Assembly (NCBI GenBank): GCA_943357985.1
Contig: CALRGR010000005.1
Span: 1 to 60,447 of the forward strand
Direction: 5' to 3'
From: Candidatus Levybacteria bacterium GW2011_GWA1_37_16
GTDB lineage: Bacteria; Patescibacteriota; Microgenomatia; Levybacterales; UBA12049
Length of the DNA: 60,447 nucleotides
The first letter of the stretch is position 1. Each line of letters begins with the position of its first letter. The notes under the pieces are model-generated. The model was not told the DNA's origin and did not search any database. It saw only the letters and a list, made by a program, of their open reading frames with translations. This document shows, piece after piece, positions 1 to 60,170 of the stretch. The translations under genes and the position numbers were made by a program.

Positions 1-3000
1 TGAGTAGCTCCTGTATTAGTAAAAGCTCCAATATCAACTCCGGTTCCAGTTCCTGCTCCTGATATTGCCCCAATATTAATGCCTTTATTTGCTGTTGTTC
101 CACTTAATGCTCCAATATCAAGCCCTGTTGAAGTTGCTCCAGTCATGGCGGCAACAGCTAGGCCGTAGTCAGTGGTGGCGCCGGTTGAAACAAAATACCC
201 ACCGTAGTTAGCAGTAGCAGCTCCGGTTACAGAAGAATACACTCCATAGTTAGTTCCTGTTGTTGCAGTATTTGCTATATTAATTCCTCTGTCAGAAGCC
301 GTAGAGGTTGCGATGTCTAATTTGTATCCTGGTGTAGTTGTCCCAATCCCAACATTGCCGGCATCAAATATGGCTGCGTAGTTATTGGTGGCGCCGGTGG
401 CAGTGGCATAGAGACCGACATTTGTGGTGGCAGCTCCCGTGTTGGCAAAGTAACCGGCGTAGTCGGTGCCGATCGTAGCTCCTGTTTGGGAAACGGAAAG
501 GGCTTTGGTATTGGAGGTTGTTGCAGAAGATGTTAGGGAAGTCAGACCATCAGAGACGGTAAGGTTGCCCGCTCCGTCTACAGTTAGTCCTGCAACGGTT
601 GAAGCGGCGTTGCTGTCAAACCCCAATGTTGCCGTTATTAGTCCTGATATTGTTGGAGTTGCAGTCCATGCGGTTCCTGTTACTGTTAAGTTTCCTCCTA
701 AAGAAGTTAAATTACTTCCCGAAACAGTAAACGTATTGCCCAAGGTAGTTGTCCCGGTGACTCCAAGAGTTGATGATAATGTCGTAGCTCCTGAAACGCT
801 CAAGGTCGAACTTAAAGCAGTAGCCCCTGTTGCACCAAAAGTTCCGCCAACTGTAGTATTTCCTGTTACGGCTAAAGTAGAAGAAAGAGTTGTTGCGCCC
901 GTTACTGCAAGCGTTCCTTCAATAGAGAGATTATCGCCTGAATTGGATGGAGCAAGTGTAGTCCCTGTTCTTGTCCACCAGCCTTGTTGTCCGTCGGTTC
1001 CACCCGTCTTTACATTTCTAACGTATAGCGTATCCCATGGAAGTGAGTCAGATCCTAAATCATTAGTTCCTGTAGTAGTAATAGGAATTAGGTTTGAATC
1101 TTGGGCGACTCTGCCATTAAAGGTAATTGTATTTGCGCTTGAAGTTCCTATGAAGGTATTTCCGTTTAGTCTTGCGCTACCTGTGCCTGTGGAAAATGTT
1201 ACATTACCAATTTGAGCAAAATTACCCGTGGTAGTTATTGAGCCTACTTCGAATCTGGAATTCCCGAAGTTGGCATCGGTTAATGTTGAGGCAGAGATAC
1301 GGCTGCCGGTTAAAATGAGGTCGCCAGCAATAGTCGTATTTCCTAGACCGTCAACGGTGAATTTGGCAATCCCGCTGCTACTGGCGCTAATAAGTGGCCC
1401 TGTGTCAGTTTGGTTGATGGTAAGGGCTGATTGTGCACTTGATGAGGCTGTAATAAAGAGGTTATCAGCTATCTCCACTGCTCCTGCTGCTCCTGGGGTG
1501 GTGCTACTGTTTGAGCTATTATATATCTGTTTCTGAATGTCAATTTTTCCCAATCCGTCAGGCGCGAGAATTATGTCACTGTTAGTTCCTGCCACAGTAG
1601 TAAGAAATAGAACATTACCCGAAAGGGAGAATTGGCCTCCAATAGCCTGGAAAGTGGAGGAAACTTTGCCCCCAATTGTTAGATTTCCGGATGAGTCAAG
1701 CGCCAAAACTACATTTTTAGTTCCTGCTTTATTTTGGGTAATAGGCAGCATTCCATCCAGTCTCTGGGAATTTTCCGATAAGGCTACGTTTGTAAGATGC
1801 TCTCTAGGCGTTAGCTCCGGGTCTGATCTTATTGCAATACCCAGCCATAGAGTGTAATTGCGTACAAACATCTCTTGGTAGAGCGGATTTTTGTTGCCTA
1901 AAGCTACAGAGAAAGTTCCATCTGACTTTGGATTTATTGTGTCCGTTTCTGTCCAAAGGGCATTTCCTGTTTTTTTCTCTGCGTCATATATTGTAAATTT
2001 AACCGAACTTGTGCCTGTAATGGGATTGCCTTTTGAATCAGTCAGTTTTCCCTGAAATAAGAGAGCGCGTCTTATACTATTTTCGTCCTGGGCAATCTGA
2101 GTAAATTGACTGCTGTTGGGGCCAAATAGCAGATTTTGGTAGATGAAAAAGCCAAGTAAGGACATTAAGATTACTAGCGCACCAAAGTGTAGATAGTGAA
2201 CAAATGGATGAGAATGATAGTTTTTATACCATTGTGGTCTGGTAAATCTTATATGATGCCAAGTTTTTTGAGGGATAGACATCCCGTTTGTAGAGACGGA
2301 GGAATAGAATTTTTTCTTGATGTTATAGACTTGAATATCTTCACCTTTATTTTTTGAAGTTTCAAACACGGGTTTTCCTTTTATTTTCCAAACAATAAGC
2401 TCCGCGCCTTTTACAATAAGAGCCAATGGTTCTATGAAAATTAGGTCAAAGAGCCAGTCTCCTGCGTAGATTATTTTCTGTACGAGTCTGACAGGTGGGA
2501 CTTTGGAGAATTTTGAAATCTCCTGAGGTTCTTGTTTCGGCTCTTCTGCGGCAGGCGTAGCAAATTGTTGCGGTACGGGAATATAATTTGGTTTTGAGAC
2601 TGGCGTAGCTTGGGGTATTCCTGAGAATATTCCCGTTTCCGTAGTCTTAGGTAATTCCGCAAAGCTTGCGTCTCTTTTTATTAGTCCTTCTTCCTTTGCC
2701 CACGCTATATATTTTCTAAGTGAAGAAAGTTTCCTGTTTATTGAAAGAGGAGAAGAGTGACTTTTAATTAAATGCAGTTTATATTCTTCTACTAGCTTCC
2801 AGTTTAATTTGTCAAAAATGTTTTTGTCGGCAACTTGCCACTCCTTTGCTACGTTAGTTACTTGCTCTGCCCATTGCATGAATTGTCTAGTATCTATGAC
2901 ATAGTTCTTTATAGTAAGAGGCGATGCGCTATGTACATAGAGATAATTTTTGAAATCTTTAAGATGCCATGGATCGGGTTGTTGATTGTTGATTGTTGAT

Positions 3001-3374
3001 TGTTGATTGTCGTCGAACGGACTGGCCGAAGCAATTCCCTCAATTTTTAGAAAATAAAAGAACTTGCGAAGAGCTGAAAGATGTCTTTTAAGGGAGCGAG
3101 GAGAAAGCTGATGCCCTGGTGTTATAACGTCAAGGAGAGTGCTTGACGTATCTCTAATTGAAGCCTTATTTGCTGTTTTATAAAGCTCAATTATTTGAGG
3201 AGTGACAGATGTGGGAGCAAAAGTCTTTTTAAATTCTTTTTCAAACCAGTGAATGAACTGGGTAATATCCGCTTTGTAGTTTTTAACCGTTGCTTTGGAG
3301 AGCTTTTTTTTCTGCCTGCCGGGAGGAAGGTTTTGTAAGTTTAGATATTGGACAAATTGTTCAGGCAGATTCAT
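1..3374 (-). CDS. Giant membrane-spanning surface protein (start complete, 3' end runs off the window; >1,120 aa): two N-terminal tyrosine-recombinase SAM-like/core-binding domains, one TM helix, then G/T/S/A/N-rich tail-fibre/beta-helix-like repeats
   Basis: Absent from the supplied ORF track because there is no stop inside the window. Manual minus-strand translation from ATG at 3374-3372 stays open to position 3; the frame was checked at 3009, 2697, 2217, 1887 and 3. It begins MNLPEQFVQYLNLQNLPPGRQKKKLSKATVKNYKADITQFIHWFEK...SPRSLKRHLSALRKFFYFLKIEG. A second unit reads SPLTIKNYVIDTRQFMQWAE...SPLSINRKLSSLRKYIAWAKEEGLI. The TM helix is FVHYLHFGALVILMSLLGFFIY. The distal part includes FQGKLTDSKGNPITGTSSVKFTIYDAEKKTGNALWTE and NVGIGTTTPGYKLDI. 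The V/P-rich plus-strand ORFs at 466-1857 are its antisense shadow. Confidence 0.8.
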   Translation of the reverse strand, partial: MNLPEQFVQYLNLQNLPPGRQKKKLSKATVKNYKADITQFIHWFEKEFKKTFAPTSVTPQIIELYKTANKASIRDTSSTLLDVITPGHQLSPRSLKRHLSALRKFFYFLKIEGIASASPFDDNQQSTINNQQPDPWHLKDFKNYLYVHSASPLTIKNYVIDTRQFMQWAEQVTNVAKEWQVADKNIFDKLNWKLVEEYKLHLIKSHSSPLSINRKLSSLRKYIAWAKEEGLIKRDASFAELPKTTETGIFSGIPQATPVSKPNYIPVPQQFATPAAEEPKQEPQEISKFSKVPPVRLVQKIIYAGDWLFDLIFIEPLALIVKGAELIVWKIKGKPVFETSKNKGEDIQVYNIKKKFYSSVSTNGMSIPQKTWHHIRFTRPQWYKNYHSHPFVHYLHFGALVILMSLLGFFIYQNLLFGPNSSQFTQIAQDENSIRRALLFQGKLTDSKGNPITGTSSVKFTIYDAEKKTGNALWTETDTINPKSDGTFSVALGNKNPLYQEMFVRNYTLWLGIAIRSDPELTPREHLTNVALSENSQRLDGMLPITQNKAGTKNVVLALDSSGNLTIGGKVSSTFQAIGGQFSLSGNVLFLTTVAGTNSDIILAPDGLGKIDIQKQIYNSSNSSTTPGAAGAVEIADNLFITASSSAQSALTINQTDTGPLISASSSGIAKFTVDGLGNTTIAGDLILTGSRISASTLTDANFGNSRFEVGSITTTGNFAQIGNVTFSTGTGSARLNGNTFIGTSSANTITFNGRVAQDSNLIPITTTGTNDLGSDSLPWDTLYVRNVKTGGTDGQQGWWTRTGTTLAPSNSGDNLSIEGTLAVTGATTLSSTLAVTGNTTVGGTFGATGATALSSTLSVSGATTLSSTLGVTGTTTLGNTFTVSGSNLTSLGGNLTVTGTAWTATPTISGLITATLGFDSNAASTVAGLTVDGAGNLTVSDGLTSLTSSATTSNTKALSVSQTGATIGTDYAGYFANTGAATTNVGLYATATGATNNYAAIFDAGNVGIGTTTPGYKLDIATSTASDRGINIANTATTGTNYGVYSSVTGAATANYGGYFVSTGATTDYGLAVAAMTGATSTGLDIGALSGTTANKGINIGAISGAGTGTGVDIGAFTNTGAT
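2981..3008. repeat. Perfect heptanucleotide tandem repeat GTTGATT x4 inside the giant ORF (encodes NQQSTINNQQ linker between the two SAM-like domains)
   Basis: Read directly: gttgatt gttgatt gttgatt gttgatt. Confidence 0.95.
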
Positions 3375-3900
3375 TGTAATTTAAATAAATACGATTACCG
3401 AATTAACACTTGTGAAAATTTATGCGTACGCACGAAATTATACGGATTATACAGATTATTCACAGAATTTCTAGACATACTACTAGAATAAGTAATATAT
3501 ATATGCGTGTCAATACCCTAGAGTATTTTGGTAAAGCTGAATGGATGTCTTATGATACAGTTTTTAAAACACTTCTCCGCTGTGAAAAATCACGCATAAA
3601 TACCTATTTTGCTATTTTCACAACTTTTATGTATTCGATAATTGTTCGCTATCTGTTCCGTCGTGTCTAGCTCAGAATATATCATCGATAAAAATTGATT
3701 GTTTATAATTTATTATAGATTATTTTAGCTTTTTGGTACTAAAAATTTAATTTCTCTTTCAAATGATTTTAAATAATAGATAGTTAATAATAAATAATAA
3801 ATGTCTTATTATAACTAGAGGCCTATGTTGGCAGGGCTAAGCACCTAGTGATAGGTATTTCAATGGAGAGGTTTAGATTGTTACGACAAGCTATCAATGA

Positions 3901-4872
3901 TTATTTTCTTAGACGGGATTTTAATTTAGCCTTAACTATCAATAACGACGATATAACTATAAGGCTTATAAGTAATATCTGTACCGGAGCTCCAATAAAG
4001 CGGGTGGTTTGGGTCAAGGCTGGGCTATGTTCGTAAAAAGTAAGGATTAATGTGGCTGTATAGGGTCCCAGCAGGAAAGTCTCCGGCCAAGCAGCGGTAA
4101 TAGATCTGGATGTGTTAGCGAGGATATTTGTTTTTTCTAGATCTACCCTGCCTACAGTCTGCCCAAATAGGTTTTTAATAAGAATATATCCTGATGTTGA
4201 TATAAATTGTTCTCCCTGGTTTGAGGTTTTAACCGAAAACTCAATAGGGCCTTTGTCTTTGAAGAATGATGAATTAAATTCGTTTATTTTGACTTGAGGC
4301 TTGGTAATCTGGCCTACGGTAAGAAGTACATTTGTTGCTACTGCAGTAATAATTTGAGATTTGTTCTTCTGAGCAGCATCCGTAGCAGGGGATGATGTGA
4401 ATAATAATGAAAAGTAATAGTCTGATAATGTTTCATCTTGAGTAATGTCTATGCGCAAGCTTAATTCTTTTTGTTGTTTTGGTCCGAGCTCTATAGAAGA
4501 AATTTCTTGATCTTTATCGAATACCTTAATTTTTTGAAATATGAGCGGATCTTTTAGATTAAGTTCACCACTTTTTAAATATCTTACCTGTCCATTCTCA
4601 TTGTCAGATTGAGTGAAGGGCTTAAAGCTAATATTAAAAGTTTCAGTTTGATCTGTTTGATTTTTGATTATAATGGGTGTTTTCAGGCTAACAGGGGCAG
4701 TTGCACGAATTTTGATAATAGGAGGATAAACCCCCAGTGAAAATGCAGATGCGTCTGCTTTCTGTGGAAATACTACCAATACTACCAATATTATCAATAC
4801 CACCAATGCCCCAATTTTAAATTCAAAATTTTTAATTTTTAATGAATTTTTAATGTTTAAATTTTTAGACAT
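3901..4872 (-). CDS. Cell-surface protein of unknown function with N-terminal signal/anchor and C-terminal TM anchor plus basic tail
   Basis: 323-aa ORF. N-terminal hydrophobic segment IGALVVLIILVVLVVF. C-terminus is ...APVQILLISLIVISSLLIVKAKLKSRLRK. The middle is beta-rich with alternating polar/hydrophobic residues. A DUF916/DUF3324-like architecture is only a guess. Confidence 0.55.
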   Translation of the reverse strand: MSKNLNIKNSLKIKNFEFKIGALVVLIILVVLVVFPQKADASAFSLGVYPPIIKIRATAPVSLKTPIIIKNQTDQTETFNISFKPFTQSDNENGQVRYLKSGELNLKDPLIFQKIKVFDKDQEISSIELGPKQQKELSLRIDITQDETLSDYYFSLLFTSSPATDAAQKNKSQIITAVATNVLLTVGQITKPQVKINEFNSSFFKDKGPIEFSVKTSNQGEQFISTSGYILIKNLFGQTVGRVDLEKTNILANTSRSITAAWPETFLLGPYTATLILTFYEHSPALTQTTRFIGAPVQILLISLIVISSLLIVKAKLKSRLRK

Positions 4873-4910: not shown

Positions 4911-5651
4911 TTAAAAATTCGGAATCGCTATAAATGTTATAGAATTGCTGTAAAACTGCGGTGCTTGGTTTCCTGAGATATTGATTTTATAGCTAATTTG
5001 GGCGCTTGCGGATTGATTTGCTTGTAATATAATCTGTGGTTCGTTTGGCTTTTGGAACTGTCTGTATGAGTTGATATCACTAAATCCTTCTGCGCATGGA
5101 TTTGAAATTGCTTGCCCTGAGCCCGCCGAATGGGCCGAAGGACTTGTCCTGAGCGAAGCCGGAGGATCACATCTATATCCAAATCCATAAGTTAATGGTC
5201 CATTCCATGGTTGAGCGACTGAAGCTGTGCAAATTCCATTATCGCAAGTGGTATCCGGAATAAAGCCTTCTGAAGAATTATGTTTTAGCATATGATCTTC
5301 AAAAGCTTGTACCGAATATCCAAAGGCTGTAGAGGAGGACACCAAAAGATTATTTAGCCTTATTACCGGGTCTGTTGCGGAAAGTTGGCCATAGTCAATA
5401 AAATTCTCCGAAACAGAAAAAGAAAACGGCTGCTCCGAAGAAAAATCTTCAAATCCAACTTGAATACTATAATTTTTTCCGCTAAAAAGGCCGTGAAGTG
5501 TTGATATTGTCTCTTTTGGGACAGGAATGTCATCTTGCGGCTGGGTGACAATACTTCCGTCAATTGTATAATCTTGGGCAAAAGCAAACGGAATAGTGAA
5601 TAGTGAATAGTGAATAGTGAATAGTATGCTAATAATTAAGAGAATCTTCAC
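4911..5651 (-). CDS. Secreted protein of unknown function (signal peptide MKILLIISILFTIHYSLFTIPFAFAQ)
   Basis: 246-aa ORF with a typical signal peptide ending AFA-Q and four Cys in the mature part. It contains the heptamer tract 5591-5625 and the GC-rich element-derived segment PPASLRTSPSAHSAGSGQ (5113-5168). Confidence 0.6.
   Translation of the reverse strand: MKILLIISILFTIHYSLFTIPFAFAQDYTIDGSIVTQPQDDIPVPKETISTLHGLFSGKNYSIQVGFEDFSSEQPFSFSVSENFIDYGQLSATDPVIRLNNLLVSSSTAFGYSVQAFEDHMLKHNSSEGFIPDTTCDNGICTASVAQPWNGPLTYGFGYRCDPPASLRTSPSAHSAGSGQAISNPCAEGFSDINSYRQFQKPNEPQIILQANQSASAQISYKINISGNQAPQFYSNSITFIAIPNF
5591..5625. repeat. Perfect heptanucleotide repeat GAATAGT x5 within the signal-peptide codons of CDS 4911-5651
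   Basis: Read directly: gaatagt x5. On the coding strand this is ACTATTC x5, translated LFTIHYSLFTIP. Confidence 0.95.
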
Positions 5652-8311: not shown

Positions 8312-8950
8312 ATGGAGTACCAGAAGCTAGCTGAAACATATTTTCCTTTTATACGACGTCACTTTTTGCCACTAGCCTTGGGATTTGTTGGAATGATGTT
8401 CTTGAGTTATGGTTTGATATCTTTATTAGCTTCTAAAAATTCACAAAATCAAGTAGTCTTTGAGCCTGGTCCTTCGGAAACCTCAGGATCTTTAGCAAGT
8501 GCTACTTTATCTCAGCAGATTGTCGTAGACATTGAAGGAGCTGTTGAACGACCTGGTGTTTATAAACTTAAGTCTGATGCAAGAATTCAAGATGTTCTTA
8601 TATCTTCCGGCGGACTTTCCGCAAAAGCAGATAGATCTTGGGTAAGTAAGAATCTCAACCTTGCTTCAAAATTAACTGACGGAGCAAAGCTCTATATACC
8701 AACGCAGGGAGAAAATTACACTTCGGGAAGTTCGGTCCTCAGTGCTCAAGCAACTCAAAATTCGAGTGGTCTTATAAACATCAACAATTCCACTGCAGGT
8801 GAATTGGATAGTCTTCCTGGTATAGGAGTGGTTACTGCAGGCAAAATCATAAATGGTAGGCCATATGCGGCCTTAAATGACCTGTTGGAAAAGAAGATAG
8901 TAGGTAGTAAGGTATTTTTACAGATTAAGGATAAAATAAGCATCTATTAA
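8312..8950 (+). CDS. comEA: ComEA-type DNA-binding competence protein (TM anchor, SLBB-like, C-terminal helix-hairpin-helix)
   Basis: VDIEGAVERPGVYKLKSDARIQDVL (SLBB-like) and NINNSTAGELDSLPGIGVVTAGKIINGRPY (HhH). Confidence 0.85.
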   Translation: MEYQKLAETYFPFIRRHFLPLALGFVGMMFLSYGLISLLASKNSQNQVVFEPGPSETSGSLASATLSQQIVVDIEGAVERPGVYKLKSDARIQDVLISSGGLSAKADRSWVSKNLNLASKLTDGAKLYIPTQGENYTSGSSVLSAQATQNSSGLININNSTAGELDSLPGIGVVTAGKIINGRPYAALNDLLEKKIVGSKVFLQIKDKISIY

Positions 8951-10176
8951 TGAACAGAAAGCTGCTCATCTTTTGCGCACTCTTATTTTTTCTTCTCACG
9001 CTTCGCTTCTATTCCTTTTACAGCAGCCGGGAAGTCTATTTTGATAAGCAGCAAATAAGTTTTCACAGCACGCTTCTTTCTGAATCTAAGTTTGTTAGCA
9101 ATCGGCAAAGCCTGACTGCTAATTTACCAAATGGCGAGAAAATTTTTATAACAACAGATGCATATTCGAGCTTCAATTTTGGAGACAAATTGATTATTTC
9201 TGGCACTTTAAATAAGCAATTGCTAAATAATAAAAGAAGTATTTGGATAATGCTTTTTCCAAAAATTGAAATTTTCGGAAACTCACTGGGGCTGCTAAGC
9301 AATTTCCGGAAGAAAGTAATATCTCTTTTTGATAAAACTCTTCCTCAGCCATCCGGAAGCCTTCTTTTGGGAATTGTGTTTGGAATAAAAGAGCAGATGG
9401 ACGCGGATTTCGTCCAAGATTTGAGGAATGTTGGGGTACTCCATGTCATCGCCGCGTCAGGAATGAATGTTGTTATGGTCGGAGGATTTATGAGCAGTTT
9501 ATTTTCGTTCTTCTTCAAAAGGCAACTTGCTTTAGCTCTGAGTATTTTTGGAATTCTATTTTATGCGGTCCTTTCAGGACTTGAGCCTTCAATTATCAGA
9601 GCTAGCATAATGGGAGGATTGGTTTTCTTGTCTCAAATTATAGGCCGGCAAAATTCAGCTTCCTATGCGCTATTTTTAGCAGGTTTTGGAATGCTTTTCC
9701 TTTCTCCGGTTCTTATATCGGATGTTGGATTTCAACTTTCTTTTACCGCAACAGCTGGACTTTTGTATCTTCGTCCGTTGTTTGCAAGAGGAGGAAAAAC
9801 TAAAATACTCATCGAAAAATCGATAATCGGAGAAGATATAGTTACAACAATTTCGGCACAAATTGCAACTTTGCCGATTTTACTTGCCAATTTTGGAATC
9901 TACTCGCTTTGGTCGGTTGTGGTTAATGCTCTGGTTTTGTGGACTGTTCCGCCTCTTATGATTTTAGGAGGAATTGGAGCAATTTTCGGCCTTGTTTTTT
10001 CCTCAATCGGACAAATATTTATTTATCTTTGTCTACCTTTCCTTTTTTATTTTGAGAAAATAGTCTCGATTTTTGGAAGCGGAACAGGACTGCTAAATGT
10101 CCAAGTCTTGCCATGGGAAATAATTGTGGGATATTACTTAATATTGACTGCCATTGTTTTAAGCCGGCATAGATAA
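8950..10176 (+). CDS. comEC: ComEC/Rec2 N-terminal and channel part (OB/DUF4131-like plus competence TM domain), without MBL domain
   Basis: 408 aa, polytopic. Contains the motif LRNVGVLHVIAASGMNVVMVGGF typical of the ComEC competence domain. The ORF stops before any metallo-beta-lactamase domain. Confidence 0.85.
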   Translation: MNRKLLIFCALLFFLLTLRFYSFYSSREVYFDKQQISFHSTLLSESKFVSNRQSLTANLPNGEKIFITTDAYSSFNFGDKLIISGTLNKQLLNNKRSIWIMLFPKIEIFGNSLGLLSNFRKKVISLFDKTLPQPSGSLLLGIVFGIKEQMDADFVQDLRNVGVLHVIAASGMNVVMVGGFMSSLFSFFFKRQLALALSIFGILFYAVLSGLEPSIIRASIMGGLVFLSQIIGRQNSASYALFLAGFGMLFLSPVLISDVGFQLSFTATAGLLYLRPLFARGGKTKILIEKSIIGEDIVTTISAQIATLPILLANFGIYSLWSVVVNALVLWTVPPLMILGGIGAIFGLVFSSIGQIFIYLCLPFLFYFEKIVSIFGSGTGLLNVQVLPWEIIVGYYLILTAIVLSRHR

Positions 10177-10214: not shown

Positions 10215-11462
10215 ATGAAGGAAGGAGTAATTCCCGCCGCTGTTGATCAAAGGGTGGTAGACCGTGAAACCGGAGATTGGTACGATTTTCGTGGCAAACT
10301 CCTAAACGATTTAGGCAAAGATCTTCCTTTAATAGGTGGTCAGGCAAATTTTTTGGCTCAATCAGAAAGCCGTGGTTTTCATAATGGAAGAACGTTTGTA
10401 AGCGGGCCGGCAAGACACTGGCTAATGGCTATAGGTATTGATGGAGTTTATGATCGTTTTAAAAAAGGTAAGCCTCTTGGAAAAAGACAGGACAAGGCAT
10501 TAACCGCCTTTTGTTATTACGTGTTTACGGATGCAAGATTTGAGCCGATTGGTAAGATGATGGGCTATACAGCAGGAGTAGTATCGATAAGACTTTATGA
10601 CAGCATTTTAAATGCATTTAATGACTCCGCTTCAGATCAAGTAAGGGCTCGATTACCCTTTAACAAGGACAACTTCAGAAAGGTGGGAGTCAAAATAAAC
10701 ATGCCATCCAGATCCGAAGAGTTTGCTCTAAAGATGTCTGACGTAAAGGGAGGAACTTTGCGCGAAGTTAGGCAATTAATCGATGCAGGAATTACAGATT
10801 CTGCTGTGATTTCAGATTCTTTAAAGATACCCGTGGACAAAGCAGGAAAAGCGATTACACTATTTCGCAGAAGAAAGGTGCTGCCCGAATCCAAGAGAAA
10901 AAGCATGCAAGATTTAGTTCTTGGATTAAAAAAAGCACAAACAGCAAAGGAGGCAAGGGCTCAGTCTGTTGAAGATATCGGTGCGTCTATGGTAAAAAAT
11001 AACCCCGATTTATTTATGGCCATAGGTCGTGTTGTTGCCCTTGCCGGATTTAGCTGCTCTCCCCGTGAGGTCGGTCTTTTTGCTGATGTATTAAGGAGAG
11101 CAGGAATTGATCCGATCACCATAAAACATTCCACGGATCGCCAAAGTCAGCATCTTTTAAAACAAGAGGTTGAAGATGCTTGTCAGATTCTAAAAGACGA
11201 TGTATCTTTAAAATTCTACAAGCCAATAATTATTAGGAAGCAGGTTGCAGGACCGATATTGTTTAGTTTGCCTAATTGGACTCAGGTAAGTGAGGATTAT
11301 TTTGGTATAGCTGAAATTTTAAGAAGGAAAAATATCCCCAGATCCAACATAGGTTCGATACCCGTACCCGTAATTGCATTTCCCAACATGGGTTTTATGA
11401 TATCGAAATCAAACATGAATGTTTTTAATGCTTGGCTGGAAGAATTACCTGCAGTTGTATAA
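10215..11462 (+). CDS. Hypothetical soluble multi-HTH protein sitting between the two ComEC parts
   Basis: 415 aa. The segment LGKRQDKALTAFCYYVFTDARFEPIGKMMGYTAGVVSIRLYDSILNAF resembles a sigma-70 region-4/LuxR-type HTH. Further HTH-like stretches follow (GGTLREVRQLIDAGITDSAVISDSL). It looks more GC-rich than its flanks by eye. TATAAT lies at 10201-10206, 8 nt before the ATG. Confidence 0.5.
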   Translation: MKEGVIPAAVDQRVVDRETGDWYDFRGKLLNDLGKDLPLIGGQANFLAQSESRGFHNGRTFVSGPARHWLMAIGIDGVYDRFKKGKPLGKRQDKALTAFCYYVFTDARFEPIGKMMGYTAGVVSIRLYDSILNAFNDSASDQVRARLPFNKDNFRKVGVKINMPSRSEEFALKMSDVKGGTLREVRQLIDAGITDSAVISDSLKIPVDKAGKAITLFRRRKVLPESKRKSMQDLVLGLKKAQTAKEARAQSVEDIGASMVKNNPDLFMAIGRVVALAGFSCSPREVGLFADVLRRAGIDPITIKHSTDRQSQHLLKQEVEDACQILKDDVSLKFYKPIIIRKQVAGPILFSLPNWTQVSEDYFGIAEILRRKNIPRSNIGSIPVPVIAFPNMGFMISKSNMNVFNAWLEELPAVV

Positions 11463-11464
11463 AA

Positions 11465-12331
11465 ATGAAGAAAATTGTACTACTCATTCTTCTCTCCTCA
11501 CTTTTTCTAGCCGGAATTTTTGTCTATCAGCAAGCAAAATTTAATGACGGGAAACTTCATATTGTTATTTGTAATGTTGGTCAAGGGGATGCCTTATTTA
11601 TCCGTACTCCTTCTGGTCAAGACGTTTTGATAGATGGCGGTCCGGATAAGTCGGTTCTTACTTGTCTTTCCAATCATATGCCATTTTGGGACCGTGACAT
11701 TGAGCTTATGATACTTACTCACCCCCACACAGACCATTTTATCGGACTCGTCTCCGTTTTAAAAAATTATGAAGTGAAAGCTTTTGCAACAGAGGAATTA
11801 AAAAATAAAGCGGCGGGTTTTGATAAGTTGATGAATTTGATTGTGAGTAAATCTATTCCCATCAGGCGTGTTTTAGCAGGAGATAGATTTATTCTAAAAG
11901 ATGGAGTTCGGTTTGAAATAGTGGGTCCAACGGAAGAATTTATCAAAAAAACAAGTCCTGGTGGTTTCATTGGGGAAAGCGGTGAGTTCGCATCGGTAGA
12001 AACTTTACTCCGGTATGGAAAATTTTCGGCGGTGTTTACAGGAGACAGCCAAGCGATCGAACTTAAAGAGGCTATAGACAAGGATATTTTAGGTAATGTT
12101 GTAGTATTGCAAGTGCCGCATCATGGTTCAAAAACAGGGCTCGATTCTCAAGTCTTGGGTATTTTACAGCCAAGTCTTGCCGTTATCTCAGTCGGCGCAA
12201 AAAATAAATATGGTCATCCAAATCCAATAACTTTGGATTTGCTCAAGCAATTTGGTATAAAAACTTTAAGAACAGATCAGAATGGGGAAGTAGAAATAAT
12301 CTCAGATGGAAGCAGTTGGGGAGTTAAGTAA
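11465..12331 (+). CDS. Membrane-anchored MBL-fold hydrolase corresponding to the ComEC C-terminal (beta-lactamase-like) domain, encoded as a separate gene
   Basis: Start moved to ATG 11465 (MKKIVLLILLSSLFLAGIF...), directly after the upstream stop. Contains ICNVGQGDALFIRTPSGQDVLIDGG and LTHPHTDH (HxHxDH). Confidence 0.8.
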   Translation: MKKIVLLILLSSLFLAGIFVYQQAKFNDGKLHIVICNVGQGDALFIRTPSGQDVLIDGGPDKSVLTCLSNHMPFWDRDIELMILTHPHTDHFIGLVSVLKNYEVKAFATEELKNKAAGFDKLMNLIVSKSIPIRRVLAGDRFILKDGVRFEIVGPTEEFIKKTSPGGFIGESGEFASVETLLRYGKFSAVFTGDSQAIELKEAIDKDILGNVVVLQVPHHGSKTGLDSQVLGILQPSLAVISVGAKNKYGHPNPITLDLLKQFGIKTLRTDQNGEVEIISDGSSWGVK

Positions 12332-40379: not shown

Positions 40380-40733
40380 ATGGTAGGTCCAGAGTCCAGG
40401 GGACAAGTTACAATTCAGCATGAGCTTGCAAGAAATGAACTTCCTCTTGTTCAAATAGCTGCTCAGGGCTTAGGGGAAGCAGGATTAGGTGATTTTTCCT
40501 ATGCAGTTGTTGAAGACAATGGTGGACCAAGCGTAACTGTAAATTACTCTGGACAAAAAGACCGCAGTCTTGTTTGGAGGGTTATTGCTGGAAGGAAGTT
40601 AGATAATCCAGAAGAATTACCTGTTATTCAAGAGGATATAGCAAGAAGAATAGAAATAGAGGTTGAGTTAAGGGAAAAGTTCTCTAAATTTGCACGACCT
40701 TCCGGAAGTTCTATAAGGCACCCCAGATTTTGA
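40380..40733 (+). CDS. Hypothetical protein
   Basis: 117-aa ORF with no recognisable motif. Its 3' end overlaps the 3' end of the convergent 40711-43086 gene. Confidence 0.35.
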   Translation: MVGPESRGQVTIQHELARNELPLVQIAAQGLGEAGLGDFSYAVVEDNGGPSVTVNYSGQKDRSLVWRVIAGRKLDNPEELPVIQEDIARRIEIEVELREKFSKFARPSGSSIRHPRF

Positions 40734-43086
40734 GGGCGGCTTTGGCTTGGTCGTCATTTGGGTCAATTTTCTCAAGGATATATTTTATTTGCTTGATTGC
40801 TTTTTGTTCTAAAGCTTCATCAATTACTTTTCCTGTTTTATCTACTGCTTGCTGATGATAAAAAAGTGCCAATCCAAAATGTGCGTCTCCATAAGCTGGT
40901 CTAAGTTTTACCGTGTTTTCAAGTGTTTTAACCGCTGCGCTAAAGTCTCCGCTTTGTCCTTGTAAAATTCCAAGGTTGTAAGAAATTGTTGCGTCAGTTG
41001 GCGCAAGTGTTTGGGCTTTTTTAATTGCCTCAAGCGTAAAGGGAAGATATTTGGGGTAAACTTGAGAAAGTGTGTAAAAAAGCCTTACTCTACTTTTCCA
41101 GAAAGTAACATTGTTTGGGTGTTCTGTTGTAACTTTATCACTTGTTTGAATTGCGCTTTGAAGAAGTGCTGTAATAATCGGCTCGTCCTTGGCAGCTTCC
41201 GAAGCTTGCTTAATTTGATTAGCGCTAATAATAGATGCTGCCAGCACCCCATTGTTTATGGAGAACTCATCAAGAAAGACCGGCTCATCTTTTCTCTGTG
41301 TAATTGCACTAGTAAGATATGTATATGCAGGTTCGAATTGTTGAGCGCGGTCTAAATTATACCCCATATAATATGCCTTGTCGGCATTCCAATATTTAAA
41401 AAGTTGTAATAGAAGATAGAGAGCCAGAACTACCAAAGCTATAATTATTGCTTTTTGCGCTAGGGTTTTCTGTGCGCCCATCTTATTTGTTTGTGGAAAT
41501 GCTAATACTTTTTCATTGTCAATTAAATCTAGAGTTAGAAGCGCAAACGCTGGGATAAGGAAAAAGTAAATATTAATAACAACAACGGAGAATCCAACGA
41601 CGTTTGTAACAAGAATACTTACATATCCTGCAAGAAGAGCAAGGGTAAGCCATTGACCATTGACCATTGACAATTGACCATTTTTGAGTAAAGCTCGGAA
41701 GGAAATATAGAGAAAATAGAAAATCATCCCTATGTAAGACAAAAATCCAAAAAGGCCGGTGGTTGCTAGGAAATTAAGATATTCATTGTGGGCTTTGTTA
41801 TATAGGAAATTCCATTCGGACGTAAGGTTATGTTCCTGTGGGCGGTATTGGTAGTAAGAGTATGCAAAAGTTTCAACTCCGGATCCAAAAATTGGATTAT
41901 GTTTCCATATTTGAAAAACACCTTTCCATACGACCAAACGGATATCCCAAGAACTTGTTATATTTAGCTCAAGTGCTGGAATTGCGGCAGGAGTACTAGT
42001 TTTAGTAGCAGTCTGTTTGGATATCTTTGAAGAAATCCCCGGATATGTAATAGCGTTTAATTTATCAAATGGGAAACCGACAAAAAATACAGTTAAGAGG
42101 AAAATGAAAAGGGAAGCAAGCAAAAGTTTGTTGGTCTTTTTTTCTATAATCTCGGAGAAGACATTCTTGTTTATAATTTTAATACTTGTTGGGAATGGAA
42201 TTCTGAGAAACGGGTGGCGATAGTAGATGCTGACCCATTTAATTGAGGCTGCTTCTCTTATTTTATATATTGGTGTAAGCATAATTAAAAATGCTGCAAT
42301 AAAACCTAAGAATCCTGACTGAGATTTTGTGTAAAGAAGATCCAAGAAAAAGAGAGTAGCAAGTAGCAAGTAGCAAGTAGCAAGTATAAATTCCTTTTGC
42401 AATACATAATACTTAATACTTGATACATTATACTTTCCTCGTAAGTTCGCAAGCTTTGAAAAATAGGAAATAGAAAAGCTTAAAGAAATCGGCAGTAATA
42501 TTGCAAGAAATGCGGCCAGCCAATTGGGTTGTCCAAGGGTTGAAAAAATTCTAAGTTTTGGTTGAAAATCTACTGTCCAGCATGAAACATCAAAAGTTCC
42601 CCGGAAAAGTAGGCAAGTTGGGTCGTATCCAAAATGGGACGGAAGTCCCCAAAGTGCAACAATTGCGCCGGACAAAAGACCTAAGACAAGAAGTTTTTTT
42701 ACCATCTTTAAAGTTAAAAGATTTGAAGCAAATGCGTAGTAAAGAAGAATGTAGGAAATAATTGATAGTAGGCCGCCGTTAAATCTTGAATAATATCCCC
42801 ACAAAGAAGTGTGAGGGTCAAGCGAAATTATAGTTGAGATAATTTGGGAGGCAAGAAAAAGCGCAATTGGAATATCCAGCGGAGTTCTTTGAATAAAAAA
42901 TCTTTTCTGCGCAACCATTTTTACAGCCCAAGAAGCTGTAATTATTATTGTTAGGGCAAAAGTGGCCCACATTTTATTAAATTCAAAAAGCTCGCTTGTA
43001 TTATTAGCAAATAGAAGCGGAACAAGAAGGAAGAGGAGGTAAAAAGAGTATTTAATAAAGCTATCTGCCCATTTAATTACTTTCAT
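40711..43086 (-). CDS. Polytopic O-antigen-ligase-like (Wzy_C) membrane protein with C-terminal TPR repeats
   Basis: 791 aa with more than 10 TM segments. Contains AHNEYLNFLATTGLFGFLSY (O-antigen ligase signature region). The C-terminal TPR-like repeats include AISYNLGILQGQSGDFSAAVKTLENTVKLRPAYGDAHFGLALFY. Confidence 0.75.
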   Translation of the reverse strand: MKVIKWADSFIKYSFYLLFLLVPLLFANNTSELFEFNKMWATFALTIIITASWAVKMVAQKRFFIQRTPLDIPIALFLASQIISTIISLDPHTSLWGYYSRFNGGLLSIISYILLYYAFASNLLTLKMVKKLLVLGLLSGAIVALWGLPSHFGYDPTCLLFRGTFDVSCWTVDFQPKLRIFSTLGQPNWLAAFLAILLPISLSFSISYFSKLANLRGKYNVSSIKYYVLQKEFILATCYLLLATLFFLDLLYTKSQSGFLGFIAAFLIMLTPIYKIREAASIKWVSIYYRHPFLRIPFPTSIKIINKNVFSEIIEKKTNKLLLASLFIFLLTVFFVGFPFDKLNAITYPGISSKISKQTATKTSTPAAIPALELNITSSWDIRLVVWKGVFQIWKHNPIFGSGVETFAYSYYQYRPQEHNLTSEWNFLYNKAHNEYLNFLATTGLFGFLSYIGMIFYFLYISFRALLKNGQLSMVNGQWLTLALLAGYVSILVTNVVGFSVVVINIYFFLIPAFALLTLDLIDNEKVLAFPQTNKMGAQKTLAQKAIIIALVVLALYLLLQLFKYWNADKAYYMGYNLDRAQQFEPAYTYLTSAITQRKDEPVFLDEFSINNGVLAASIISANQIKQASEAAKDEPIITALLQSAIQTSDKVTTEHPNNVTFWKSRVRLFYTLSQVYPKYLPFTLEAIKKAQTLAPTDATISYNLGILQGQSGDFSAAVKTLENTVKLRPAYGDAHFGLALFYHQQAVDKTGKVIDEALEQKAIKQIKYILEKIDPNDDQAKAALKIWGAL
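42356..42383. repeat. Perfect heptanucleotide repeat GTAGCAA x4 inside CDS 40711-43086 (a second tract, CCATTGA x3 plus 2 degenerate, lies at 41650-41684)
   Basis: Read directly. Confidence 0.95.
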
Positions 43087-57652: not shown

Positions 57653-57684
57653 ATCTGTTTCCATTTATTTGGAAACAGAAATTT

Positions 57685-59146
<1,462 letters not shown>

Positions 59147-59303: not shown

Positions 59304-60035
59304 ATGAAAAAAAGAGTAACAGCTATAGTGCCTGCGTATAACGAAGAAAAATATATCAAAGAAGTTCTGCTTCCTCTTGTTAATTCTCCCTATATAGACG
59401 AAGTCATCTGCGTAGATGATGGATCTACTGACTCAACTCTTGAAGTCTTAAAGAATTTCCGCGGAATTGAAGTTTTAAATTATACAAAAAACCATGGAAA
59501 AGCTTTTGCGATCGCAAGAGGCCTGGAAAAGGCAACGGGAGATATTGTTCTTTTCTTTGATGCCGATATTCACGGATTAACTGACGTGCATATAAAAAAG
59601 TTAATTTCACCTCTTTCCGGTGGGAAATATGATCTTTCAATAGGTTACCGTTCCAGCAAAATGGAGTCTTCTGTTGGAGTGCCTTTTAGTGGAGAGAGGG
59701 CATATTTTAGAAAAGATTTATTGCCTCACATCAAAAAGTTTGAGAATAAGGGTTATGGACTGGAGCTTTATCTTAATTTCCATTTTAAAAATAAGAGAAA
59801 AAAGATATTTAAGATGAATGGCGTATTAAGTTATGCCAAAAGCAATAAAGTTTCCAAAGTTAAGGCAATTAAGCTTCATAGCGACGAAACTTTTGAAATA
59901 ATCCAGGAGATTGTTAAAAGAAAAAACATGGTCTCTTATTTTCTTAACGCGTATTTGGTTTACGTTTATGTTAATGATCAAAGCATTAGTAAATATTTAT
60001 CCTACAGATCTTTCATAGAATACATTCAAAAATAA
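59304..60035 (+). CDS. GT2-family glycosyltransferase
   Basis: VTAIVPAYNEEKYIKEVLLPL, VICVDDGSTDST and LFFDADI (DxD). Confidence 0.85.
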   Translation: MKKRVTAIVPAYNEEKYIKEVLLPLVNSPYIDEVICVDDGSTDSTLEVLKNFRGIEVLNYTKNHGKAFAIARGLEKATGDIVLFFDADIHGLTDVHIKKLISPLSGGKYDLSIGYRSSKMESSVGVPFSGERAYFRKDLLPHIKKFENKGYGLELYLNFHFKNKRKKIFKMNGVLSYAKSNKVSKVKAIKLHSDETFEIIQEIVKRKNMVSYFLNAYLVYVYVNDQSISKYLSYRSFIEYIQK

Positions 60036-60098: not shown

Positions 60099-60170
60099 GG
60101 CGCGGTGGCGAAGAGGTAACGCAGGAGTTTGCAAAACTTCCATGCAGGGGTTCGATTCCCCTCCGCGCCT
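60099..60170 (+). tRNA. tRNA-Cys (anticodon GCA)
   Basis: GGCGCGG TG GCGA AGAGGTAA CGC A GGAGT TTGCAAA ACTTC CATGC AGGGG TTCGATT CCCCT CCGCGCC T. Confidence 0.88.

Follow-up and report, generated by a model that had tools for sequence, protein, structure and literature searches.

An ultra-small (CPR) bacterium encodes a giant, membrane-anchored, phage-tail-fibre-like surface protein whose predicted cytoplasmic end carries two recombinase-type core-binding (CB) domains with no recombinase enzyme attached. This design is undescribed and may link a host-contact fibre directly to DNA. The window analyzed here is a 60,447-nt stretch from Candidatus Levybacteria bacterium GW2011_GWA1_37_16 (contig CALRGR010000005.1). 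Translation of positions 1 to 3374 on the minus strand gave 1,124 codons with no stop, open from ATG 3374 to the window edge. There is an in-frame stop three codons upstream of ATG 3374, and homologues start at the same Met. The gene was absent from the ORF list used in the original prediction because that list omits ORFs that run off the window. It continues beyond the window edge, and a near-identical contig shows at least 1,334 aa.

Profile searches confirmed that the N-terminal part contains two Xer-type CB (SAM-like) domains. Pfam PF02899 Phage_int_SAM_1 matched in two stretches with E = 7.5e-16 (58.6 bits, against a cut-off of 22.3), and PF13102 and PF13495 were also significant. The first domain, CB1, spans aa 1-111 (3042..3374, minus strand), and the second, CB2, spans aa 138-230 (2685..2963, minus strand), which is the best PF02899 stretch and covers positions 1-83 of the 83 in the model. 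The XerD NCBIfam model matched aa 22-135 with its positions 10-103, and the XerC model matched aa 140-236 with its positions 2-90. The AF2 model shows CB1 as a helical bundle with pLDDT above 90, apart from a low-confidence loop around aa 71-90, and CB2 with pLDDT mostly above 90. XerD (PDB 1A0P) is a Foldseek match at a probability of 1.00. CB1 and CB2 are paralogues, with 30% identity (E = 5e-8), and both units match the CB profiles over their full length and keep the hallmark helix-B and helix-D motifs, xxKNYxxDxxxFxxW and RxLSSLRKFFxFL (compare R.LSALRSF in Xer). Unlike the Xer recombinases, however, the protein has two CB domains in tandem, no catalytic domain, no arm-binding domain and no mobile-element context, and the CB pair is followed by a TM helix and a giant ectodomain.

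Although NCBI names relatives of this protein 'site-specific integrase, partial', it is not an integrase. There is no PF00589 catalytic domain in the window ORF, in 6 complete relatives or in 31 homologues, and the Xer models match only their first ~100 positions, at about 60-70 bits against cut-offs of 330-335. Furthermore, the flanking genes are housekeeping genes. Nor is the fusion an artefact. At least 190 species genomes, mostly Levybacteria, encode collinear relatives, and the fusion is collinear in 49 complete ORFs of 1,273-3,854 aa from independent assemblies, so it is not a frameshift or a chimera. The protein is conserved in Levybacteria and is also found in Collierbacteria.

The CB pair is followed by a variable, disordered, Pro/Lys-rich cytoplasmic linker at aa 240-287 (2514..2657, minus strand), which has pLDDT below 50 and varies in length and sequence in the alignment. 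The next region, aa 288-389 (2208..2513, minus strand), is a conserved juxtamembrane segment with the motifs YSxFPPxRLxQK, a long amphipathic helix, GKPVF, FYAPLxIS and WHHLRxTRPxWYKxYHS, and it has no match in any family library. AF2 predicts helices at 293-332 and 367-388. The single transmembrane helix, a signal anchor with N-in/C-out topology, is at aa 390-417 (2124..2207, minus strand), where the Kyte-Doolittle hydropathy peaks at 2.03 at aa ~399 and AF2 also gives a helix. The helix at aa 293-332 is a second, weaker hydrophobic one (peak 1.8), but it is amphipathic and never reaches TM level in 77 relatives. A family-wide charge bias agrees with the topology, since the N-terminal part has a median net charge of +19 and 14.3% K+R, while the ectodomain has 5.0% K+R.

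The ectodomain has a predicted Ig-like beta-sandwich base domain at aa 434-530 (1785..2075, minus strand), marked by LLFQGKLTDS in the window, PPRILSFQGRLTD in the family consensus, and ...ELTPR. Its pLDDT is ~68 rising to 86-93, and Foldseek matched it to a Big-1 domain, to phage minor tail proteins and to the lambda tail-tip chain 9e7m_Ta. The domain is shared with P0032, a protein which has a signal peptide and Peptidase_S74. The remainder, aa 531-1124 (3..1784, minus strand), is a tail-fibre-like shaft, rich in T, G, S, A and N, with degenerate 12-residue repeats of the beta-helix type and the NVGIGTTTPGYKLDI motif. Over aa 801-1124 the composition is 23% T, 16% G, 14% A and 10% S. The repeats are protein repeats, and there are no DNA tandem repeats in this part.

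The shaft has 525 homologues, many with PF13884 Peptidase_S74. The window copy lacks the part that would carry an intramolecular-chaperone module, but complete relatives continue into PF11962 (Peptidase_G2) or PF13884 modules and a conserved FNWLIVN end domain. PF11962 was found in 4 of 6 complete relatives, and the S74 site CPSDVRLKKNI is present in the CB-headed protein P0037. The Collierbacteria member, KKT43999.1, is named 'Phage related tail fiber protein'. These modules are of the kind seen in phage tail fibres and tailspikes (endosialidase-type Peptidase_S74 and phi29 gp12-type Peptidase_G2), and their presence implies a trimeric, self-processing fibre, although trimerization and self-cleavage are inferred from family knowledge. 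In contrast with the phage proteins, the gene is chromosomal and cellular, the protein is anchored in the cytoplasmic membrane by an N-terminal signal anchor with a cytoplasmic head, and the chaperone module is internal, followed by about 450 more residues, inferred to include a stalk, and the conserved end domain. A PHROG search of the ectodomain gave no hit. The structural claims of the original prediction, namely two recombinase-type CB domains without an R-H-R-Y domain, one TM helix and a tail-fibre-like ectodomain, are all supported.

The gene is the third conserved member of a Pam-type pilus/surface cluster, and in many relatives a Wzy_C/TPR membrane protein follows it. Immediately upstream is o323 (3901..4872, minus strand), an envelope protein with two Ig-like domains, an N-terminal signal/TM helix and a C-terminal TM helix, which resembles PamC/D/R and WxLIP and is found upstream on the same strand in 65 of 80 loci. 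Its AF2 model has a pLDDT of 89, and Foldseek matched it to E. faecium WxLIP (9i1y and 9i25, E about 2e-11), RbmA (7e-11) and CsuC/CfaA/FimC/Caf1M (about 1e-8 to 1e-7). Next is o246 (4911..5651, minus strand), a secreted Pam-type (PamT-like) pilin, present in 59 of 80 loci. It matched NF058581 CPR_Pam_pilin_C over 2-148/148 with E = 3.8e-5, which is below the cut-off, and the L007 orthologue matched NF058579 PamT over 8-241/241 at E = 1.4e-11. The study of the Pam pilus (Troman et al., bioRxiv 10.64898/2026.03.03.709456) reports a 'tail fibre-like protein' as a central node in pamA neighbourhoods, and conserved neighbouring ATP synthase genes, but does not describe the architecture of the fibre protein, any DNA-binding head or any cis-element. 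Note that the Levybacteria cluster is minimal, that its pilin hits are below the NCBIfam cut-offs, and that the giant protein itself matches no Pam model, so its membership of the pilus system is by neighbourhood only. The WxL/WxLIP (DUF916-DUF3324) clusters of Enterococcus and Lactobacillus also combine a membrane-anchored WxLIP, a small secreted protein and a large surface protein that the WxLIP binds (PMC10599100). However, no WxL domain was detected in o246 or in the giant protein, PF06030 is below its cut-off (21.9 against 27.3 bits), and the large protein here is anchored by its own N-terminal TM helix.

The original prediction also suggested that the protein might couple surface attachment or DNA uptake to DNA binding. 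ComEA, ComEC and the MBL domain gene do lie within 8 kb in the window and in 23-34 of 80 loci. However, they are divergently transcribed, separated from the cluster by LeuRS, and as conserved in position as LeuRS itself, which looks like lineage-wide synteny. Furthermore, HTH-headed equivalents (see below) sit next to ATP synthase instead, and the head is cytoplasmic and tethered, so it could only meet DNA after import. A link to DNA uptake has no specific support, and we consider it very unlikely.

What, then, is the function of the CB pair? In Daviesbacteria and other CPR lineages, we found the same design of a single TM helix and a giant fibre, but with an unrelated MerR/excisionase HTH (HTH_17) head, sometimes in tandem, in the position of the CB pair. 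About 38 of the 50 long representatives among the top 150 hits have this design, and they reach 5,310 aa. HTH-headed fibre genes lie right after the ATP synthase operon. The independent replacement of the head by a different DNA-binding fold is hard to explain unless nucleic-acid binding is the selected property. The CB motifs RxLSSLRKF and KNYxxD are also invariant across proteins that are only ~37% identical.

Each head class has its own repeated DNA boxes at its own promoter. In the leader of the CB-headed gene there are three tandem boxes at a 9-bp period, GAATAATC-T-GTATAATC-C-GTATAAT (3437..3461, minus strand), which are a gene-specific conserved cis-element and a candidate operator for the CB-CB head. 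They follow a near-consensus sigma-70-type promoter, TTGACA-N17-TATTCT (3485..3513, minus strand), preceded by a conserved ACTCTAGG. The promoter is present in 60 of 64 loci, ending a median 33 nt upstream of the tandem boxes. Tandem GTATAAT-NN-GTATAAT occurs in 64 of 72 loci with an invariant 9-bp period, and 73 of 74 occurrences in 1.24 Mb of locus DNA lie at this gene. The extended 20-mer has 60 exact hits in 596 Gbp, one per genome, and 51 of these lie a median 67 nt upstream of a CB-CB ORF. There is no conserved RNA structure. A second repeated motif, TTTTCACA/TGTGAAAA, has three boxes in the region 3411..3622 of the minus strand (3411-3418, 3581-3588 and 3615-3622) and is about 15-fold enriched upstream of the gene across loci. 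By contrast, the HTH-headed genes have different boxes (AATCTATGCA), which abut or overlap the core promoter, are about 40-fold enriched and number 3-5 per locus, and none of 42 has the CB-type element. The CB-headed gene of a second order (Collierbacteria) has a related tandem GTCTAAT pair in the same place. However, the association between head type and box type rests on three lineages, so lineage-specific promoter evolution is a confounder.

It is also possible, although we consider it unlikely, that the CB pair no longer binds DNA and is an exapted helical module for protein-protein contacts or retention, for example for cytoplasmic partners, oligomerization or controlling the insertion of a giant signal-anchored protein. 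The leader boxes would then serve RNA polymerase or an elongation factor, either by sigma-dependent promoter-proximal pausing or by loading an RfaH/LoaP-like antiterminator, and they might even be tandem -10 boxes. The -10-like TATAAT boxes do lie in the early transcribed region, about 26-40 nt after the -10 hexamer, and the gene is very long (4-12 kb) and encodes a surface structure, probably the class that uses conserved ops leader elements and RfaH in other bacteria, which is a functional analogy only. Isolated CB domains of tyrosine recombinases also tend to bind DNA weakly without the catalytic domain. Against this, besides the replacement of the head, the boxes of the HTH-class genes sit in or next to the core promoter rather than in the leader, and the flanking G and C and the fixed 9-bp period of the CB-class boxes are conserved beyond what a -10-like pause element needs.

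Two other roles for a DNA-binding head appear less likely than regulation at the membrane. The heads of a trimeric fibre (up to six CB domains) could tether the nucleoid or a specific locus to the membrane at the site of the host-contact fibre, with a structural or segregational role. This would be analogous in function to B. subtilis RacA, which appears to use a MerR-type wHTH, the fold found in the alternative heads, to anchor the chromosome to the pole, although RacA has no sequence relationship to this protein and is not a membrane or surface protein. The tandem heads and the inferred trimer would give avidity, and the cytoplasmic part is strongly basic. However, the only conserved candidate site is single-copy and lies in the gene's own leader, which fits autoregulation better than a centromere-like array. 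In addition, small HTH-TM proteins with no fibre exist next to Wzy_C/TPR genes, so the head-plus-TM module can function without a fibre. Alternatively, and still more doubtfully, tension or binding at the fibre might trigger cleavage at the membrane and release the CB-CB head as a soluble transcription factor, in the manner of Notch or of anti-sigma/RseP pathways. The highly conserved juxtamembrane region and the self-processing modules in the ectodomains of relatives are in favour of this, and one HTH-headed gene lies next to a Peptidase_M50 site-2 protease. However, that adjacency follows the housekeeping rpsB-tsf-frr block, so it is probably incidental, no protease is conserved in the Levybacteria cluster, and no cleavage motif was identified.

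Our preferred model, which is inferred and remains tentative (neither an experiment nor a DNA-protein model shows that the CB pair binds DNA at all), is that the protein is a bitopic, probably trimeric fibre for host contact or adhesion, whose cytoplasmic head binds DNA at the inner face of the membrane. This fits the suggestion in the original prediction of an exapted, membrane-tethered regulator. The inferred arrangement recalls bitopic transcription regulators of the ToxR, TcpP and CadC type, with a cytoplasmic N-terminal DNA-binding domain, a single TM helix in N-in orientation, an extracytoplasmic C-terminal part and candidate operator boxes at the gene's own promoter. However, the DNA-binding fold is a recombinase CB pair, or a MerR/excisionase HTH in the sister class, rather than an OmpR-type wHTH, and the outside part is a structural fibre of 1,000-5,000 aa rather than a small sensor domain. 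The most likely target is the single-copy tandem GTATAAT boxes in the gene's own leader, although a 9-bp period is out of helical phase. The protein would then be a membrane-tethered autoregulator that couples the amount or state of the fibre to transcription of its own gene. The nascent head may even act in cis, because a giant co-translationally inserted protein is made next to its own gene.

Translation of positions 1-3374 of the window on the minus strand gave 1,124 codons with no stop. An in-frame stop lies three codons upstream of the ATG at 3374, and homologues begin at the same methionine. The gene had been missing from the ORF list, as the original prediction noted, because that list omits ORFs that run off the window. 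It is the largest gene in the window, the next largest being LeuRS at 861 aa. ORFs on the plus strand within the gene (466-1215, 1228-1536, and 1537-1857) were treated as shadow ORFs. A Pfam search found Phage_int_SAM_1 (PF02899) at E=7.5e-16 in two stretches, together with PF13102 and PF13495. The NCBIfam XerC and XerD equivalogs match only their first ~90-103 positions, at about 60-70 bits against cut-offs of 330-335. Thus, there are two core-binding (CB) domains and no catalytic domain. CB1 and CB2 are paralogues, with 30% identity (E=5e-8). Hydropathy analysis gave one strong TM segment at aa ~399 (Kyte-Doolittle 2.03) and a weaker segment at aa ~311 (1.8). The distal 700 aa are T/G/S/A/N-rich but contain no DNA-level tandem repeats, and the only array is TTGTTGA x4.6 in the CB1-CB2 linker.

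Relatives of this protein are named 'site-specific integrase, partial' by NCBI. A search with aa 1-547 found 31 of them, nearly all from Candidatus Levybacteria or other Patescibacteria and nearly all truncated at contig ends. The N-terminal core-binding domain of a tyrosine recombinase is present. However, the catalytic domain (PF00589), with its R-K-H-R-H/W-Y active site, was not found in the window ORF, in 6 complete relatives, or in the precomputed domains of the 31 homologues. A genuine XerC hits the window only at the CB regions, the window has no genuine Xer gene, and the neighbours are housekeeping genes in a 38.7% GC genome. We conclude that the protein is not a member of the tyrosine recombinases. 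The alignment of the relatives is collinear throughout, with CB1, CB2, a variable linker, a conserved juxtamembrane region (YSxFPPxRLxQK, amphipathic helix, GKPVF, FYAPLxIS, WHHLRxTRPxWYKxYHS), the TM helix, and a PPRILSFQGRLTD ectodomain.

A scan of one genome per GTDB species found at least 190 loci that encode a relative, and 80 of these were fetched. Forty-nine loci hold complete ORFs of 1,273-3,854 aa, with a main length class of 1,350-1,600 aa, and all but one (locus L066) end in the conserved module ...SLIYITP...YLxRQ...SFTVGI...FNWLIVN. The six complete relatives have the two CB domains, and four of them have a partial Peptidase_G2 (PF11962) match at aa ~800-940 (positions 32-99 of 228, E 1e-7 to 4e-9). 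A 99%-identical neighbour protein led to a near-identical 14-kb ENA contig with the same gene order, which shows that the gene of this organism is at least 1,334 aa long and is again cut by the contig end. Many of the MAGs among the fetched loci (L002-L220) that carry this Levybacteria-type locus are titled 'uncultured Gammaproteobacteria bacterium (binchicken...)' or Sulfotelmatobacter, Eisenbacteria, or Methylomirabilota (SMAG). Their gene content and synteny indicate that they are Patescibacteria, so these public taxonomy labels appear to be wrong.

An AF2 model of aa 1-547, built from 30 sequences, has a mean pLDDT of 75. It shows two confident helical bundles (aa 3-111 and 138-228), a disordered linker (aa 240-287), a long helix (aa 293-332) and short helices (aa 367-388), a TM helix (aa 390-417), and a beta-sandwich (aa 438-527, pLDDT mostly 86-93). 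Foldseek matched the head to XerD 1A0P and a phage XerC integrase at probability 1.00, and the sandwich to Ig-like (Big-1) domains, phage minor tail proteins, and a lambda tail-tip chain. The E-values are weak because the query has several domains (best 0.012 against the PDB and 9e-4 against BFVD), so these matches are useful only as support. A single-sequence search of the PDB with aa 1-240 gave only noise, but the CB profile of the family finds only Xer-type N-terminal domains in the PDB. One of these hits was chain 14 of PDB 9i5v (E=1e-8), a 401-aa chain deposited as 'ribosome-associated translation inhibitor RaiA', which raised the possibility that the CB domains had been exapted for ribosome or RNA binding. 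However, a genuine XerC aligns to residues 12-290 of that chain, so it contains a complete Xer recombinase, as a Xer-RaiA fusion or a mis-joined gene model, and we rejected this idea.

Across 77 members, there is one TM-grade helix (median 1.95), and the upstream helix never reaches 1.9 (median 1.16). The N-terminal part has a median net charge of +19 (14.3% K+R), while the ectodomain has 5.0% K+R. This gives N-in/C-out topology by the positive-inside rule. The order of a cytoplasmic N-terminal domain, a single TM helix, and an extracytoplasmic C-terminal domain is that of bitopic membrane-tethered transcription regulators of the ToxR/CadC type, although the DNA-binding nature of the head is by homology only.

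The ectodomain is tail-fibre-like. It has 525 homologues on its own, and many of them carry PF13884 (Peptidase_S74). P0037 is a CB-CB-TM-fibre protein with an S74 site (CPSDVRLKKNI), P0039 has the G2-type module (ADFAEYF...GVTSERPAFLGG...), and P0032 has a signal peptide, the same base domain, NVGIGT motifs, and S74. The Collierbacteria member KKT43999.1 is named 'Phage related tail fiber protein'. In a Collierbacteria locus (L165, 736-4410 and 4466-5824), the fibre is split into a 1,224-aa CB-CB-TM-fibre gene and a separate 452-aa Peptidase_S74 gene immediately downstream, whereas in other cluster members the same region is one 1,695-aa protein. This is either a real split or an assembly frameshift. 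Searches of PHROGs and NCBIfam gave no hit for the ectodomain, and Pfam gave nothing for the juxtamembrane region or the C-terminal FNWLIVN module. The window ORF ends before the expected position of a chaperone module, and trimer formation and self-cleavage are inferred from what is known about these chaperone families.

The two genes upstream on the same strand are conserved in 59 and 65 of 80 loci. The first, o246 (4911-5651), encodes a secreted protein that matches NCBIfam CPR_Pam_pilin_C (NF058581) over the full model, although at E=3.8e-5 and 23.8 bits it is below the cut-off of 55. Its orthologue in locus L007 matches PamT (NF058579) end to end (8-241/241, E=1.4e-11), at 44 bits against a cut-off of 240. 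The second, o323 (3901-4872), models with pLDDT 89 as a signal/TM helix, two beta-sandwich domains, and a C-terminal TM helix (297-322). It matches WxLIP (2e-11), RbmA (7e-11), and chaperone-usher chaperones such as CsuC, CfaA, FimC, and Caf1M (about 1e-8 to 1e-7), all at probability 1.00. This is the description of PamC/D/R in the 2026 preprint on the CPR-specific Pam pilus (bioRxiv 10.64898/2026.03.03.709456), which also reports a 'tail fibre-like protein' and ATP synthase genes as central, conserved neighbours of pamA. The giant protein itself is not a recognised Pam component, since no NCBIfam Pam model hit the window ectodomain or the ectodomain of a complete relative, and the link is by conserved neighbourhood only. 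The best fold match of o323 is the WxLIP of WxL cell-surface clusters, while its PF06030 (DUF916) match, E=1.9e-4, is below the cut-off, and no WxL domain was found in o246 or the giant protein.

Other conserved members of the cluster are a ~208-aa polytopic protein upstream (40 loci; absent from the window), further Pam-type pilins (15 loci), and a ~717-aa Wzy_C-like/TPR membrane protein directly downstream (29 loci, median gap 142 bp), which would lie beyond the window edge. A 791-aa Wzy_C (O-antigen-ligase-like, E=1e-13) plus TPR membrane protein of the same family is encoded elsewhere in the window (40711-43086, minus strand). It is speculation, but the Thr/Ser-rich fibre might be O-glycosylated by such enzymes. 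LeuRS, ComEA, ComEC, and the MBL gene form a divergent syntenic block, which we read as lineage synteny and not as a functional link. In this block, ComEC appears to be split (8950-10176, 10215-11462, and 11432-12331, plus strand), with a Competence-domain gene (408 aa) and a metallo-beta-lactamase-domain gene (299 aa) separated by a 415-aa ORF with no Pfam hit. The 415-aa ORF has no counterpart in the related loci (0 of 80), whereas the two ComEC parts do. Near the other end of the window, the 16S rRNA gene (57683-59146, plus strand) spans only 1,464 nt while matching the full 1-1533 model. It is followed by a family-2 glycosyltransferase gene (243 aa; 59304-60035, plus strand) and then a tRNA (60099-60170, plus strand), not by a contiguous rRNA operon.

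Is the CB pair the only head found on this kind of fibre? Two ectodomain homologues, P0119 (Parcubacteria) and P0122 (Daviesbacteria), are CPR proteins annotated as MerR-family regulators. They have a MerR/HTH_17 domain, a linker, one TM helix, and the same fibre, and the ...TFTVSGNNLTSLGGNLTVSGTAWTATPTISGLITAT of P0119 is almost identical to that of the window protein. An exhaustive HMMER search with P0122 aa 1-279 gave 240 representatives at E<=1e-10, and fifty of the top 150 are at least 600 aa long. About 38 of those have an N-terminal HTH (sometimes two in tandem), one TM helix at aa 110-340, and a T/G/S/A/N-rich (50-60%), K/R-poor ectodomain of up to 5,310 aa. In GTDB genomes, the best matches are Daviesbacteria, other Microgenomates, and Patescibacteria, and in about 35 loci the gene lies directly after the ATP synthase operon. 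In a Parcubacteria contig (L082, 8767-9906 and 10001-11284), the HTH-headed fibre gene directly follows a Peptidase_M50 (site-2 protease) gene. This could hint at regulated intramembrane proteolysis, but it follows the housekeeping rpsB-tsf-frr block and may be incidental. Furthermore, small HTH-TM proteins (about 210-260 aa; 384 aa in L139), with a MerR/excisionase HTH, a C-terminal TM helix, and no fibre, lie within about 2 kb of Wzy_C/TPR homologues in Woesebacteria and other CPR (loci L132, L133, L139, L140, L146, L151, and L154). This suggests that the head-plus-TM module also exists on its own and has a recurrent link to that membrane protein. The independent use of two unrelated DNA-binding folds in the same position argues, by inference, that nucleic-acid binding is the selected property of the head.

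The DNA upstream of the giant gene was then examined for repeated motifs. In the 350 bp upstream of the Levybacteria genes, GTATAATC occurs in 62 of 76 loci and TGTGAAAA/TTTTCACA in 58 of 76, while shuffled sequences give at most 27. The layout is ACTCTAGG..TTGACA-N17-TATTCT, then about 33 nt, then RATAAT-NN-GTATAAT-NN-GTATAAT, then yTCGnGGCTAA, with TTTTCACA boxes on both sides. The tandem element has an invariant 9-bp period in 64 of 72 loci, and in the window, it occurs only at 3437-3461. An 82-aa ORF on the opposite strand (3422-3670, plus strand) overlaps this conserved promoter/leader region and is called as a gene in related contigs, but it has no Pfam hit and is found in only one related locus, so it is probably a spurious call over a regulatory region. 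A generic promoter element was rejected because 73 of 74 occurrences of the tandem element in 1.24 Mb of locus DNA lie at this gene, and the extended 20-mer, GTATAATCYGTATAATYTCG, has 60 exact hits in 596 Gbp, one per genome. Fifty-one of these lie a median 67 nt upstream of a CB-CB ORF, and three are at contig ends. The other six are in Acidobacteriota MAGs of the Pyrinomonadaceae/Blastocatellaceae type (L175, L194, L202, L213, L215, and L218) with no CB ORF downstream. In L202, the one inspected, the 20-mer lies inside a cyanophycinase-like coding region next to a cyanophycin-synthetase-like gene. It is apparently a conserved coding sequence there, and we treat these six hits, which look like coincidences, as unrelated. 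A structured RNA leader or riboswitch was also not supported, since RNAalifold found 0 pairs over 28 leaders and Rfam found nothing there.

By contrast, the HTH-headed genes carry AATCTATGCA/AATCTATGTA boxes that abut the -35 hexamer and fill the spacer, plus a third direct copy and an inverted copy. These boxes are about 40-fold enriched, with 3-5 per locus, and none of 42 loci has the CB-type element. The CB-headed gene of Collierbacteria has TTGACT-N17-TATATT...GTCTAATG-TT-GTCTAATT-TGAACCTAATCA, plus five TTT(T)CCGCA boxes. This pattern fits head-specific operators and autoregulation. However, it is correlative, it rests on three lineages, and the boxes, which are only candidate operators, could instead be sites of sigma-dependent pausing, an ops-like antitermination site, or tandem -10 boxes.

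We regard the protein as a bitopic, membrane-tethered, predicted DNA-binding protein, which differs from known proteins of this kind in its head, a tandem pair of recombinase CB domains, and in its outside part, a giant tail-fibre-like fibre, both of which appear to be unprecedented. We found no description of this architecture in the searchable literature, and a preprint on giant genes does not mention it. A broader reading, which we offer only tentatively, is that CPR (Patescibacteria) bacteria have a widespread, undescribed class of giant, probably trimeric surface fibres with interchangeable cytoplasmic DNA-binding heads at their N-termini. The head would be a tandem pair of Xer-type CB domains in Levybacteria and Collierbacteria, and one or two MerR/excisionase HTH domains in Daviesbacteria and others, each recognising its own repeated boxes at its own promoter. 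A single polypeptide would therefore span from chromosomal DNA to the host-contact surface and wire fibre assembly, occupancy, or tension directly to transcription, and the nascent head might even act in cis on the gene being transcribed. This would also be the first case of a tyrosine-recombinase CB domain recruited as a stand-alone operator-binding module.

The naming of hundreds of these genes as "site-specific integrase" inflates the counts of mobile elements in CPR genomes, and the gene also breaks assemblies repeatedly. The family appears to add an unnoticed conserved partner, linked by neighbourhood only, to the newly described Pam pilus system, and it shows a recombinase DNA-binding domain being reused outside recombination and replaced in sister lineages by an unrelated HTH. 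CPR bacteria make up a large share of bacterial diversity and live attached to host cells, yet they have very few recognisable regulators, and how they sense and respond to host contact is an open question. A protein that reaches from DNA to the tip of a surface fibre would be a minimal trans-envelope signalling or feedback device, and it gives that question a concrete, testable target in a defined protein head and a defined 25-bp DNA element.
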